From an uncultured Desulfospira sp. (GTDB lineage: Bacteria; Desulfobacterota; Desulfobacteria; Desulfobacterales; Desulfobacteraceae), in assembly GCA_963663165.1 (NCBI GenBank), contig OY760175.1, positions 5,216,001 through 5,280,000 of the forward strand: 64,000 nt of DNA, given 5' to 3'. A model generated the notes under the pieces. That model was not told the DNA's origin. It saw only the letters and a program-made list of their open reading frames with translations, and ran no database searches. The translations under genes were made by a program, and so were the position numbers. Positions 39,287 to 45,209 of this stretch are shown here, in pieces (position 1 is the first letter of the stretch; the number at the start of each line of letters is the position of its first letter).

Positions 39287-39369
39287 GTTGGCTTTACTTT
39301 TCAGGGTTTGGTGATATAATACTTCATTTGAGTATCCTTCAGCACAATATAATAAAAGGGACAATGATC

Positions 39370-39732
39370 ATGAAAGAAGAAGATCTGAAGTATTTTAAAA
39401 CTCTTTTAACGGACAGGCTCAATGAGCTTTTGTCCCATGCTGACAGTACGGTGGAGGGGATGACCAAGCCAAAGGAGAATTTCGCCGATCCCACAGACCG
39501 GGCATCCCACGAAGCGGAAAGAAGTTTTGAACTGCGGATCAGGGACCGTGAGCATAAACTGATTAAAAAGATAAAAAAAGCCCTGGTAAGGATTGAAAAC
39601 GGAACCTTTGGCGTCTGTGAAGTCTGTGAGGAAGATATCTCCATTGAACGGCTCAAGGCCAGGCCCGTGACCACCCATTGCATTGACTGCAAAACCAGGG
39701 AAGAAGATATGGAGAAAGCGCTCGGCCTTTAA
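39370..39732 (+). CDS. dksA: RNA polymerase-binding protein DksA
   Basis: ADPTDRA, RDRE.KL, CxxC..RL.ARP...CxxC. Confidence 0.93.
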   Translation: MKEEDLKYFKTLLTDRLNELLSHADSTVEGMTKPKENFADPTDRASHEAERSFELRIRDREHKLIKKIKKALVRIENGTFGVCEVCEEDISIERLKARPVTTHCIDCKTREEDMEKALGL

Positions 39733-39751
39733 CGGGCTTTGGGAAAGACCC

Positions 39752-41326
39752 TTGATTGACCTTCACATACATTCTACCGCTTCTGACGGCTCTTTTACCC
39801 CCCTGGAAATTCTGAGCCTTTCAAAGGATAAGGGCCTTGAGGCCATCTCTTTGACCGATCACGATACCATTGAGGGAATCAGGGCAATTCATGAACATCT
39901 TCACTGCTTTTCCTTAGAGTTTATCTCCGGGGTCGAACTGTCCTGCACCCCACCTGAAGAATTCAAACGCGCTGGCAGCGTCCACATGCTTGGTTACGGG
40001 TTTTCCGTCTATGATACCCGGTTAAACCATTTGCTTGAAGAGGCAAAAGCCGCCAGAGAACAACGCAATTCAAAAATTATCAAAGCCCTGAATCAGATTG
40101 GCGTTCATATCAGCCTTAAAGAGGTCGAGGACCGGTTCGGCGCAGAACAGACCGGCCGCCCCCATATTGCCGAGCTTCTTAAAGAAAAGGGCGTGGTTGA
40201 CAGCTTTGACCAGGCCTTTAAATTATACTTAGGACAGGGCAAACCCGGGTATGTGGATAAATATAAAGTTTCCTGCGAAACAGCCATTCAGGTCATTACC
40301 GATGCCGGCGGGGTTCCGGTGCTGGCCCATCCGGGGCTGCTCAGACTCGACACCGACAGTGAGCTGGCCGCCTTTGTCCAAAAACTTGCCGGGTACGGTC
40401 TTCAGGGGATTGAAGTCTTTTATACAGACCATGATTCTGAACGAACGGCCTTTTTTAAGTCCCTTGCCGAACAAAACAAGCTGTTAACCACCGGTGGATC
40501 GGATTTTCACGGCACTTTTAACGCCGGGGTTGAACTGGGCACGGGCAAGGGAAATCTTGACATCGGGTTTGGCCTTTTCCAGACCCTGGCCAGGCGGGCA
40601 GCCTCCATCAGGACCCTTCACGTCCGGCTGGACATCCTTGAATCCAACTTAGGATACCGGTTTATTGACCGGCCGCTTTTGGAAAATGCCCTGTGCCACC
40701 GGTCCTACCTGAATGAAAATCAGAAAACCTGTTCATCGGACAACGAGCGCCTTGAATTTTTAGGGGATGCGGTCCTTGGCCTGTGTGTGGGCCATATTCT
40801 CATGAAAAGCAATCCGGATAAAAAAGAGGGCGACCTGTCAAAGCTTCGGTCCAGCCTGGTTTCAGAACCTGCCCTGGCCGACATGGCCAGAAAGATTGAC
40901 CTTGGGCGGTTTGTCCGGCTTGGAAAAGGGGAGGCCGTGTCGGGCGGGGCGGATAAAGATTCCATCCTTTCCGATGCCTTTGAGGCCTTGATGGCCGCTG
41001 TTTACCTGGATTCCGGGTTTGAGCGGACCTTTGAACTGGTTCAGGGCCTGTTTTCCCCCTGCATTGAAACGGCAGAGTCCAGCCTGCAAATCAGCGATTA
41101 TAAAAGCGCCCTCCAGGAGTATGCCCAGGAGGCGTGGTCGGTGACGCCGTCTTACACCCTGTCCGGCGAGATGGGGCCGGACCACGACAAAATTTTTGAA
41201 ATCAGCCTGGAACTGCCCCATATCCGGTCCACCGGTTTCGGAAAGACCAAAAAGGCAGCCGAACAGGAATCGGCCAGAAATGCCCTGGAACAGATTTACA
41301 GCGAACGGGACCAAAGCGCCGGATAA
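39752..41326 (+). CDS. rnc: PHP-domain hydrolase - ribonuclease III fusion
   Basis: N half DLHIHS..SDG, TDHD, GRPH, AHP, GGSDFHG; C half NERLEFLGDA, DAFEA and dsRBD (DYKS.LQE, GPDH, KKAAEQ); probable TTG start at 39752. Confidence 0.92.
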   Translation: MIDLHIHSTASDGSFTPLEILSLSKDKGLEAISLTDHDTIEGIRAIHEHLHCFSLEFISGVELSCTPPEEFKRAGSVHMLGYGFSVYDTRLNHLLEEAKAAREQRNSKIIKALNQIGVHISLKEVEDRFGAEQTGRPHIAELLKEKGVVDSFDQAFKLYLGQGKPGYVDKYKVSCETAIQVITDAGGVPVLAHPGLLRLDTDSELAAFVQKLAGYGLQGIEVFYTDHDSERTAFFKSLAEQNKLLTTGGSDFHGTFNAGVELGTGKGNLDIGFGLFQTLARRAASIRTLHVRLDILESNLGYRFIDRPLLENALCHRSYLNENQKTCSSDNERLEFLGDAVLGLCVGHILMKSNPDKKEGDLSKLRSSLVSEPALADMARKIDLGRFVRLGKGEAVSGGADKDSILSDAFEALMAAVYLDSGFERTFELVQGLFSPCIETAESSLQISDYKSALQEYAQEAWSVTPSYTLSGEMGPDHDKIFEISLELPHIRSTGFGKTKKAAEQESARNALEQIYSERDQSAG

Positions 41327-41461: not shown

Positions 41462-42541
41462 ATGAACCGGAAAAAAGATGCCCCCCTTGTGATTCCGGTT
41501 TTTATTCCCCATTCAGGATGTCCCCATCGTTGCGCCTTCTGCGATCAGTCCATTATTACCGGGCAGGCGTGTTCGTCTCTGGAACCCATTGATTTAAAGT
41601 CAATTATTGAACAATACCTTAAGTTCAGGGGCGACCGCTCAAGGGTGGAGCTGGCCTTTTTCGGAGGGAACTTTCTCGGGCTTGACCCCCGGGAAATGAT
41701 CGGGCTCCTGGAACAGGCCGCACCGTTTATAAAGGACGGCCTTATTCATGGGATCCGATGCTCTACCCGGCCTGATACCATTACCCCCAAAACCCTGGAC
41801 ATCATCAGTCCCTATGGGGTGTCCCTGGTAGAACTCGGGGTTCAGTCCATGGATGATGCCATTCTATCCCGTCTCCATCGCGGACATACCGGGGATCATA
41901 CCCGTAAGGCCCTTGGGCTGCTCAAACAATATGGCATTCAAAGCGGGGTCCAGGTTATGGTGGGACTGCCCGGGGAGGCCCGGGAGGGGGTGGTCAACGG
42001 GGTCAGGGAACTGACAGCCTTTGAGCCAAAGACCGCCAGGATTTATCCTCTTGTGGTTCTTAAGGGAAGTCTTCTGGCCAAATGGTACCGGGACAAAACC
42101 TTTACCCCGATTTCTCTTGACCAGGCCGTTGAGCGATCAAAATTAATTTATCAGATCTTTACCATTGCCGGTGTAAAGGTAATCCGCATGGGGCTTCAGG
42201 CTTCGGAGGTCATGGATGATCCTGGCAAGGTTCTGGCCGGCCCCTGGCATCCGGCATTCGGTCACCTGGTACTGTCCTCGCTGTGTTACGACCGGGTCAG
42301 GGCCCGGCTGGCATCTGTTCTGGACGAGGTTCCAGTTCCAGAAAAAGGGGGACGGGTTACCATTACCGTCCATCCCAGATCTGAATCCAGGCTGAGGGGA
42401 GATAAAAATTACAATATCCAAAAGCTTATGAAAGCGTATCCCGGTAACGGCTTTTCCATTGCCACATCTTCACAGCTCTCCCTTGATGGGTTCCATTTGA
42501 ATGTAGAGCCCAAGGGTCATGGTGCGGCAAATCGGGGTTAA
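41462..42541 (+). CDS. Radical SAM protein (Elp3/YhcC-like)
   Basis: IPVFIPH.GCPHRCAFC, FFGGNF, STRPD, ELGVQS, GPWHPAFG. Confidence 0.88.
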   Translation: MNRKKDAPLVIPVFIPHSGCPHRCAFCDQSIITGQACSSLEPIDLKSIIEQYLKFRGDRSRVELAFFGGNFLGLDPREMIGLLEQAAPFIKDGLIHGIRCSTRPDTITPKTLDIISPYGVSLVELGVQSMDDAILSRLHRGHTGDHTRKALGLLKQYGIQSGVQVMVGLPGEAREGVVNGVRELTAFEPKTARIYPLVVLKGSLLAKWYRDKTFTPISLDQAVERSKLIYQIFTIAGVKVIRMGLQASEVMDDPGKVLAGPWHPAFGHLVLSSLCYDRVRARLASVLDEVPVPEKGGRVTITVHPRSESRLRGDKNYNIQKLMKAYPGNGFSIATSSQLSLDGFHLNVEPKGHGAANRG

Positions 42542-42663: not shown

Positions 42664-45038
<2,375 letters not shown>

Positions 45039-45209
45039 TAATATTTGAGGGAAGATACCATTCTCATTTGTATCGATAATTTGCAACACAATCAGCTAAA
45101 ACAAGATATATTAATGGAATAGCGCCATAGCAATCAATTTGGTTGCAGTAAAGCACCTGCGGTTGGAAGAACACGCTCACCAACAGGCGTCAATCCCGAT
45201 TTTGGAAGT

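Follow-up and report, generated by a model that had tools for sequence, protein, structure and literature searches.

The window, a 64-kb stretch of DNA analysed here as a whole, contains a gene in which a PHP phosphoesterase domain is joined to ribonuclease III and a dsRNA-binding domain (dsRBD). The gene lies between dksA and a radical SAM gene, and all three are read from the + strand. The features of the locus are as follows.

39328..39732, + strand: dksA, 134 aa (Pfam DksA_N, 7.9e-27; zf-dskA_traR, 8.9e-13)
39752..41326, + strand: whole PHP-RNase III-dsRBD gene, likely extent, TTG start, 524 codons plus TAA
39752..40618, + strand: PHP (TrpH/YciV, COG0613-type) phosphoesterase domain, residues 1-289 (Pfam PHP, NCBIfam, PDB, Foldseek)
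40619..40627, + strand: junction, residues 290-292, between two helices of the AlphaFold2 model
40628..41086, + strand: RNase III catalytic domain, residues 293-445 (PF14622, PF00636, TIGR02191)
41099..41296, + strand: dsRNA-binding domain, residues 450-515 (Pfam dsrm, 3.9e-13)
41462..42541, + strand: radical SAM protein, Radical_SAM plus Radical_SAM_C, Elp3/YtqA-like (Pfam, NCBIfam)

The open frame extends without interruption from position 39683 to the TAA at 41324-41326, in agreement with the single frame described in an earlier sequence-only reading of this DNA. A TTG at 39752 stands directly upstream of the codons for IDLHIHS, and 19 nt separate it from the dksA stop codon (39730-39732). 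TTG or GTG was found at the equivalent position in all 17 same-family loci examined, and the fusion gene is likely to comprise positions 39752-41326 and to encode 524 aa. An internal start giving a separate RNase III was ruled out. Residues 257-308 include no in-frame ATG, GTG or TTG and no Met at the junction is conserved in the family, so a separate RNase III cannot begin there by a canonical start codon. The AlphaFold2 model of the fused protein (mean pLDDT 91.5, pTM 0.79) was confident across the junction, with the final helix of PHP (273-289) on one side and the opening helix of RNase III (293-300) on the other. Judged by sequence, the part without conservation measures about 10 residues, and overall the junction spans roughly 3-10 residues. 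Of 76 fused proteins, 71 have a spacing of 83-85 residues from the DFHG to the EFLGD motif. A promoter/terminator scan placed promoter-like sites at 39293-39320, upstream of dksA, and at 40197-40224, within the PHP part; the number of such sites (six versus 4.2 expected) was not above that in shuffled sequences. An Rfam scan of the 64-kb window returned zero matches.

The PHP half matched Pfam PHP (PF02811) at 3.2e-09 and 37.8 bits, against a gathering cut-off of 26.4, and contains a helical insertion domain. Residues 2-264 aligned end to end with the NCBIfam models of both pAp phosphatase and RNase RNM. The score was 185.3 bits for NF041577 (3',5'-nucleoside bisphosphate phosphatase, CV1693 type; cut-off 400, not reached) and 163.7-166.3 bits for NF047791 (RNase AM/RNase RNM; cut-off 375, not reached), a model on which E. 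coli Rnm itself scores 505.9. Among PDB sequences 2yb1 was the best match (4.2e-27) and 7ug9 gave 5e-26, the four solved COG0613 relatives ranging from 4e-27 to 2.5e-24. Foldseek target-normalised TM-scores (TMt) to 9etk, 3e0f and 2yb1 were 0.78-0.85. By its Pfam score and the fold of solved members, the PHP half belongs to the TrpH/YciV (COG0613) branch of the PHP superfamily. By profiles and PDB matches, RNase AM and the pAp phosphatase CV1693 are about equally close to it. Within the genome, NF047791 gave 166 bits for the PHP half and 61+26 bits for the sole paralog, and identity to E. coli RNase AM was 30% and 27%, respectively; by these measures, E. coli RNase AM has its nearest relative in this genome in the PHP half. 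In a tree of PHP domains, built without CV1693 and the other solved COG0613 members, the placement of E. coli Rnm was unreliable because its branch was very long (5.6), and the relation to YciV was judged by profile scores and pairwise identity.

All nine PHP metal ligands were present (H5, H7, D12, H37, E62, H78, H193, D251 and H253), so that the full metal motifs reported earlier held up, and they were kept in 22/22 fused rows of the alignment. The corresponding set in E. coli RNase AM is His13, His15, Asp20, His45, Glu72, His83, His198, Asp255 and His257; the accessible text of PMC9410882 names all of these except His15 as ligands of the three-metal site. The same text assigns the 5'-phosphate pocket to Arg107, Arg110, Arg141 and a stacking Phe161. 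These four correspond to R102, R105, R136 and F156 of the fused protein, likewise kept in 22/22 fused rows, and the paralog of the genome has K, G, R and I at these positions. Arg201 of E. coli, which contacts an active-site sulfate/phosphate, is replaced by Leu196. Arg occupied this position in just 3 of 72 aligned rows and is therefore no family-wide requirement. Judging from its metal site and 5'-monophosphate pocket, the PHP half is predicted to be catalytically intact.

The full RNase III signature and the C-terminal dsRBD were also borne out. The catalytic domain matched Ribonucleas_3_3 (PF14622, 9.6e-38) and Ribonuclease_3 (PF00636, 4.1e-25), and residues 297-515 passed the TIGR02191 equivalog model with 239 bits against a cut-off of 166.25. 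ERLEFLGD lies at residues 332-339. In the alignment E332, E335, D339, E359, D408 and E411 correspond to E38, E41, D45, E65, D114 and E117 of E. coli RNase III, which are its catalytic residues; among the 76 fused proteins E335, D339, E359 and E411 were invariant, and E332 and D408 were conserved in at least 90%. The RNase III half is 36% identical to the E. coli enzyme, and the elements of the dsRBD follow the order alpha-beta-beta-beta-alpha in the AlphaFold2 model. Domain matches with profiles this strong, conserved over many genomes, are far beyond chance. Bacterial RNase III is a homodimer that cleaves dsRNA, leaving 5'-phosphates and 2-nt 3' overhangs. Profile searches of the genome with TIGR02191 and PF00636 recovered the fused protein (241.8 bits with TIGR02191) and no second free-standing RNase III or Mini-III. 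The fused gene is thus the sole RNase III-family gene of this genome, a single contig of 96.7% completeness from a bacterium of the sulfate-reducer type. Public databases label the fused protein simply 'ribonuclease III'.

The fused state was found in 22 of 24 genomes of the same family, whose members share 49-94% identity. The conservation across related genomes that the earlier reading had proposed to check was thus found, and the fusion is no one-off stop-loss artefact. Among the matches listed, all 120 of 120 90%-identity clusters were fused, 113 of them also with a precomputed PHP match. Fused members include Desulfobacula toluolica, Desulfobacter postgatei, Desulfotignum, Desulfospira joergensenii, Desulfamplus, Desulfatitalea and Desulfatibacillum. 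These observations confirm a genuine, conserved fusion that places both enzymes in one polypeptide chain.

Two separate genes in relatives had been named as the finding that would speak against the fusion. Such genes occurred only outside the family. In the other families of Desulfobacterales, PHP and rnc were mostly split, adjoining genes; 12 split loci were found in the order, and in three of them a single stop codon and a gap of 0-9 nt separate two genes that share a frame. The conserved gene string in the order is dksA-PHP-rnc-radical SAM. A dksA homologue lay 5' of the PHP or rnc gene in 32 of 32 order-level loci examined, and a radical SAM homologue lay downstream of rnc in 28 of these 32 (one partial); in other lineages, 8 of 76 rnc loci had one there. 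PHP and rnc were unlinked outside the order. A natural fusion of RNase III with a radical SAM protein is also known (P0265). The split genes outside the family mark the ancestral state of the operon, not an artefact, and the fusion arose in this dksA-PHP-rnc-radical SAM operon by loss of a stop codon between tightly packed genes. Fused and split states were intermixed on the tree, which needs at least three changes of fused state (fusion or fission). In one genome of the family (G017, 88% complete) the string reads dksA-rnc-radical SAM, the PHP part is missing and just a distant PHP paralog lies elsewhere; RNase III works there without PHP.

RNase J (609 bits) is also encoded in the genome, as are two RNase E/G proteins; these enzymes could carry out 5'-end maturation in this organism. 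Of its three 23S genes, two have insertions, located at helix 25 and helix 45. A link between the fusion and intervening sequences (IVS) in 23S was considered: five fused relatives with near-complete genomes have 20 full-length 23S copies, all of normal length (2952-2992 nt), and IVS processing therefore does not explain the fusion.

The fusion and its rRNA hypothesis have been in print since 2020. In the Discussion of Jain 2020 (NAR, PMC7261194) one sentence mentions, for delta-proteobacteria, 'RNase AM paralogs in fusion with RNase III' and suggests a single enzyme for several rRNA-processing steps; a 2021 review (PMC8501993) repeats this in one sentence, and neither paper analyses it. Our search of the openly accessible literature, main texts only, found no study in which the fused enzyme had been examined experimentally. 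What is added here is the distribution of fused and split states, the recurrence of the fusion, its operon, its standing as sole RNase III, the retained 5'-phosphate pocket, one PHP loss, and the following caveats on rRNA. The sequence-only reading had noted that YciV/TrpH (RNase AM) trims rRNA 5' ends, including that of 23S after RNase III cleavage. RNase AM does mature rRNA 5' ends in E. coli (23S, 16S and 5S), but the RNase III product is not its direct substrate (PMC7261194). RNase III leaves 7 nt on 23S, the first 4 of which are removed by a separate, not yet named enzyme, and RNase AM takes off the last 3 alone; for 16S and 5S, RNase G and RNase E cuts intervene between RNase III and RNase AM (PMC7261194). 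The action of RNase AM comes late, takes place on ribosomal particles and follows the trimming of the 3' ends (PMC7261194). The earlier proposal that the fusion links two consecutive maturation steps does not hold for E. coli, where RNase AM does not follow immediately on RNase III (PMC7261194).

With these caveats a cut-then-trim interpretation of the fusion in rRNA processing is plausible. We tentatively prefer, at close to even chances, the reading that a housekeeping RNase III has been joined to an intact PHP enzyme that trims the 5'-phosphorylated ends it creates, likeliest those of pre-rRNA. The fused protein would dimerise via its RNase III domains and, as the housekeeping endonuclease for dsRNA, would cut duplexes, among them pre-rRNA stems. 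Two PHP domains would be present per dimer and may remove nucleotides in the 5'-to-3' direction from the 5'-monophosphorylated ends left by RNase III. A 5' end freshly made by an RNase III cut stays base-paired, and the buried 5'-phosphate pocket should therefore refuse it until the duplex opens. The most plausible substrates of the PHP domains would be pre-rRNAs with short 5' tails, after these ends have become single-stranded. Tethering would fix the stoichiometry at 1:1 and keep the local concentration high, and strict channelling would not be required. Against this reading stand the base-paired state of a new 5' end, by analogy the late action of E. coli RNase AM on something other than the direct RNase III product, and from the sequence a PHP half that scores below the RNase RNM equivalog cut-off and has Leu196 in place of Arg201. 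RNase J and RNase E/G could be alternative 5' maturation enzymes; RNase III occurs without PHP in G017, and the genes are unlinked outside the order. If the coupling is real, the protein would be a natural single-chain endonuclease plus 5'-exonuclease for RNA processing made from two unrelated folds, and a convenient in vitro system in which one polypeptide has two separable active sites. It would also offer a handle on a step in E. coli 23S maturation, the loss of the first nucleotides once RNase III has cut (PMC7261194).

The PHP domain might instead be a clean-up enzyme, scavenging pAp and short 5'-phosphorylated oligoribonucleotides released by RNase III in the manner of a nanoRNase or diribonuclease, with no specific role at rRNA 5' ends. 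We regard this as rather unlikely, though it survives best among the alternatives. The best NCBIfam model is the pAp phosphatase (185 bits versus 164 for RNase RNM), RNase J is on hand for 5' maturation, and RNase AM favours pAp and short substrates and is a diribonuclease in Pseudomonas and Vibrio, according to the accessible part of PMC11528712. A scavenger would, however, gain little from a covalent link to RNase III, and the recurrent fusion together with the order-wide adjacency argues for some functional coupling. The second PHP paralog could also scavenge, although it lacks the pocket residues for the 5'-phosphate.

It is also conceivable, but a little less probable again, that the protein is a dedicated 'cut-and-trim' nuclease of ribosome biogenesis, in which PHP docked on the RNase III dimer takes over the 5'-monophosphate ends. 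One enzyme would then do the job of E. coli RNase III, the unnamed nuclease and RNase AM. The dksA-PHP-rnc-radical SAM string would be an undescribed operon of Desulfobacterales for rRNA synthesis, processing and modification, and in the split-gene families the two proteins would form a non-covalent complex.

A neutral fusion, in which the stop codon between translationally coupled genes was lost and the loss tolerated, the domains working independently as in split-gene relatives, seems distinctly unlikely. The three same-frame split relatives are one mutation away from fusion, and the intermixed states on the tree and the deletion of the PHP part in one lineage would fit such an origin. Against this, the fused state was kept in 22 of 24 family genomes despite identities of 49-94%, the junction length is tight, and the pairing of PHP with rnc is conserved across the order. 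That the PHP part is catalytically dead, a mere structural or regulatory appendage of RNase III, is very improbable: the loss of Arg201 and the scores under the equivalog cut-offs point that way, but nine ligands and four pocket residues are invariant in the fused rows and Arg at this position is rare sample-wide. A sequencing or assembly error that took out a stop codon in this genome has a negligible chance and is refuted by the same frame in 22 of 24 family genomes, by the other fused loci checked and by over 100 independent protein clusters, which come from several sources.

Among known systems, the delta-proteobacterial RNase AM-RNase III fusions (PMC7261194) are the same protein family as the protein described here, and the same hypothesis has been proposed for them. 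E. coli RNase AM (YciV/TrpH/Rnm; 7ug9) and V. cholerae RNase AM (9etk) share its PHP fold and insertion domain (TMt 0.78-0.82), and the nine metal ligands and the Arg107/Arg110/Arg141/Phe161 pocket of the E. coli enzyme are common to both. The fused protein and the E. coli enzyme differ in sequence (30% identity; 164 bits versus a cut-off of 375; Arg201 not conserved) and in context, as the PHP domain of the window is fused to RNase III in a dksA operon, whereas the E. coli RNase AM gene adjoins yciO. The best PDB and NCBIfam match of the PHP domain is CV1693 of Chromobacterium violaceum (2yb1, TMt 0.84). CV1693 is a stand-alone enzyme, whereas the PHP domain here is fused and falls below the NF041577 cut-off of 400. 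With class-1 RNase III (E. coli Rnc and the Aquifex and Thermotoga structures) the protein has the catalytic acidic residues and the dsRBD in common. Unlike E. coli Rnc it carries a 290-residue N-terminal enzyme domain, and its gene is flanked by dksA and a radical SAM gene instead of era and recO. In concept it resembles RNase J (beta-CASP), which combines endonuclease and 5'-phosphate-dependent 5'-to-3' exonuclease activity in one chain, an analogy drawn for the fused enzyme in PMC8501993. RNase J, which the same genome also encodes, has an unrelated fold and one active site, whereas the fused protein has two.

The open frame spanning the PHP-RNase III fusion lies on the forward strand between 39683 and a TAA stop at 41324-41326, and the stop codon of dksA lies upstream at 39730-39732. 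Because dksA ends there and the TTG at 39752 is immediately followed by the PHP motif IDLHIHS, 39752-41326 (524 codons) is the likely gene, in agreement with the sequence-only reading. TTG or GTG, and never ATG, was found at the homologous start position in all 17 same-family loci checked (window 39733-39754; relatives' loci L003-L013 and L036-L040). The start lies just 19 nt past the dksA stop, with GGGAAAG, a weak purine-rich stretch, upstream; TTG is the start codon of E. coli rnm as well. Start codon and dksA spacing suggest that translation of the fusion gene may be low or coupled.

Pfam models for PHP, RNase III (two models) and dsRBD all matched the protein, and TIGR02191 (RNase III, NCBIfam; cut-off 166 bits) gave 239 bits; ORF, Pfam and NCBIfam matches thus confirmed one uninterrupted frame with the three domains. 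The PHP half (N-terminal 264 residues) gave end-to-end alignments to two models of the COG0613 type, NF041577 (pAp phosphatase; 185 bits, under the equivalog cut-off of 400) and NF047791 (RNase RNM, that is, RNase AM; 164 bits, under the cut-off of 375). With 76 fused homologues as input, AlphaFold2 gave a model (mean pLDDT 91.5, pTM 0.79) in which the final PHP helix (273-289) is separated by three residues from the first RNase III helix (293-300). Foldseek matched the N-terminal half of the model to V. cholerae RNase AM, E. coli RNase AM, CV1693 (the Chromobacterium violaceum pAp phosphatase) and BAD_1165 (TMt 0.78-0.85), and for the C-terminal half it found bacterial RNase III; none of its matches was a solved chain spanning both halves. 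The spacing from DFHG (PHP) to EFLGD (RNase III) was 83-85 residues in 71 of the 76 fused proteins, and no start codon or conserved Met was found at the junction.

For E. coli RNase AM, passages of PMC9410882 give His13, Asp20, His45, Glu72, His83, His198, Asp255 and His257 as metal ligands, Arg107, Arg110, Arg141 and Phe161 as the 5'-phosphate pocket, and Arg201 as binding sulfate. A 72-row PHP alignment that included E. coli Rnm (NC_000913.3) showed nine ligands (these eight and His15) and the four pocket residues all present in the window protein, which bears out the full PHP metal motifs noticed earlier; the same residues were kept in 22/22 fused rows. Arg201 is replaced by Leu196, Arg being found there in only 3 of the 72 rows. 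The pocket positions of the genome's second PHP protein are K, G, R and I. The C-terminal half shares 36% identity with E. coli RNase III, and its E332, E335, D339, E359, D408 and E411 align with E38, E41, D45, E65, D114 and E117, the catalytic residues of the E. coli enzyme.

The genome is a single contig of 6.74 Mb (96.7% complete) in which TIGR02191 and PF00636 each gave one match, the fusion gene; these searches detected no second RNase III or Mini-III. The fused PHP was also the top RNase RNM match genome-wide (166 bits; 30% identity to E. coli Rnm). A stand-alone PHP paralog (61+26 bits; 27% identity) lies among unrelated metabolic genes at G000:C1:5717795-5718616 of the source genome. 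RNase J is encoded as well (609 bits), as are two RNase E/G proteins.

Single, uninterrupted full-length matches were found in 21 of 24 other Desulfobacteraceae genomes, and G021 carries the fusion too, its PHP part enlarged by an insertion of about 46 residues, so that the fusion is conserved in 22/24. A contig end falls inside the PHP part in G010, and G017 has dksA-rnc-radical SAM without the PHP part and only a distant paralog elsewhere. At the G017 locus (L035, G017:C76; genome 88% complete) the PHP part is cleanly absent and the rnc frame directly follows dksA, making this lineage a natural PHP-less control. Sixteen genomes represented 16 other families of Desulfobacterales: one was fused (G029), three had both parts in the same frame separated by one stop (G025, G028, G036), seven had adjacent separate genes (G030, G032, G033, G034, G035, G038, G040), three had the parts on different, mostly short contigs (G027, G031, G037), and two gave no PHP orthologue with the query used (G026, G039). 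Two additional genomes of the order (G113, G145) were split and adjacent. Among the 30 of 32 fetched loci with both parts, 18 were fused and 12 split; between the PHP stop and the earliest potential start codon of rnc, the split loci have gaps of -140 (overlap) to +313 nt, and of 0-9 nt in the three same-frame cases. Two separate genes in relatives, the outcome that would have pointed to a stop-loss artefact, were seen only outside the family, where they mark the ancestral operon arrangement and no artefact.

Beyond the order, PHP and rnc were unlinked in a survey of 121 genomes of Desulfobacterota: among the matches listed, adjacency occurred only in same-order genomes, and where one contig carried both in other orders (G054, G058, G076, G082, G139) they lay at least 70 kb apart. 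Across 76 rnc loci spread over many phyla, none had a PHP homologue within 1.5 kb of rnc. A quick maximum-likelihood tree built on 72 PHP sequences put every fused or split-adjacent form into one clade (SH-aLRT 99%), and the 17 same-family fused forms also made up a clade (98%). Five further fused forms (G029, P0122, P0123, P0125, P0126) were dispersed among split forms, so that the starred branches force at least three changes of state.

The best 150 matches in a representative library of 1.84 billion proteins held just four further fused clusters of full length, plus one fragment. Among the matches listed, RNase III and dsRBD were matched in 120/120 clusters at 90% identity and PHP as well in 113; the other seven (490-505 aa) probably reflect shortened start calls. 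Fused clusters are named 'ribonuclease III' or 'pAp phosphatase' at source, and named hosts include Desulfobacula toluolica, Desulfobacter postgatei, Desulfotignum, Desulfospira joergensenii, Desulfamplus, Desulfatitalea and Desulfatibacillum. Other unusual fusions were P0241 (509 aa; MazG nucleotide pyrophosphohydrolase, RNase III, dsRBD) and P0268 (418 aa; TrpH-type PHP, GNAT acetyltransferase).

dksA lies upstream of the pair in 32/32 fetched order-level loci, and 28/32 have a radical SAM homologue (one partial) downstream of rnc. Downstream features in the window are:

41462-42541, + strand: radical SAM gene (Radical_SAM and Radical_SAM_C; best matches MnmL/YtqA and Elp3, under every NCBIfam cut-off)
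43959-45041, + strand: truncated-looking kinase ORF (sensor-kinase-like N-terminus, HisKA-type H-box SHEIRTPLN)

Elsewhere, radical SAM follows rnc in 8/76 rnc loci, from Syntrophales, Geotalea and several Clostridia-type MAGs (L043, L047, L051, L053, L055, L061, L087, L089), and P0265 (584 aa) is a natural RNase III-dsRBD-radical SAM fusion. The context suggests an RNA-related role for this uncharacterised family. The kinase ORF stops about 40 residues past the H-box; its listed frame lacks an ATPase domain, and it may represent a histidine kinase that is truncated or frameshifted.

Two of the three 23S rRNA genes of the source genome, L123 (G000:C1:3717946-3721456) and L124 (G000:C1:1023205-1026715), are 3511 nt long versus 2974 nt in L122. 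They carry insertions of ~123 nt in helix 25 (E. coli positions ~540-552) and ~414 nt in helix 45 (~1163-1181), both folding to long stems (z ~ -8); the larger codes for a PF05635 '23S rRNA-intervening sequence protein' (1e-33). Insertions of this type are classical RNase III-excised IVSs. IVS processing was rejected as an explanation of the fusion, since such insertions are absent from five fused relatives (same-genus G001 and four others).

The protein is best read as what would be a housekeeping RNase III bearing a tethered 5'-phosphate-dependent 5'-to-3' trimming domain. Order-wide gene pairing, recurrent fusion, fixed junction length and the retained 5'-phosphate pocket tentatively favour a coupling in which the fused PHP would trim the 5' ends of RNase III products. 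The sequence-only reading had proposed two consecutive steps, a cut and then a trim, from the activity of E. coli YciV/TrpH (RNase AM). That activity is documented in Jain 2020 (PMC7261194), where RNase AM was shown to mature 5S, 23S and 16S rRNA at their 5' ends. A strict relay is weakened by the same source: of the 7 nt that RNase III leaves on 23S rRNA, another enzyme removes the first 4 and RNase AM just the last 3, and RNase AM acts late, on ribosomal particles, after 3'-end processing; in the maturation of 16S and 5S rRNA, cleavage by RNase G and RNase E comes in between. It is weakened further because the PHP half resembles a pAp phosphatase just as closely and because RNase AM homologues are also described, in passages of PMC11528712, as diribonucleases; that the PHP domain is a general scavenger appears rather unlikely. 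The presence of RNase J and the loss of the PHP part in the G017 lineage also tell against a strict relay; a neutral fusion of PHP and RNase III is improbable. The fusion itself is confirmed, and its proposed role in rRNA processing is plausible and partly supported.

A literature search found no experimental work on a fused PHP-RNase III enzyme. Both the fusion and the rRNA-processing inference are already in print, in parts of PMC7261194 and PMC8501993; the latter, a 2021 review, repeats the point of Jain 2020 and compares the fusion with beta-CASP enzymes.
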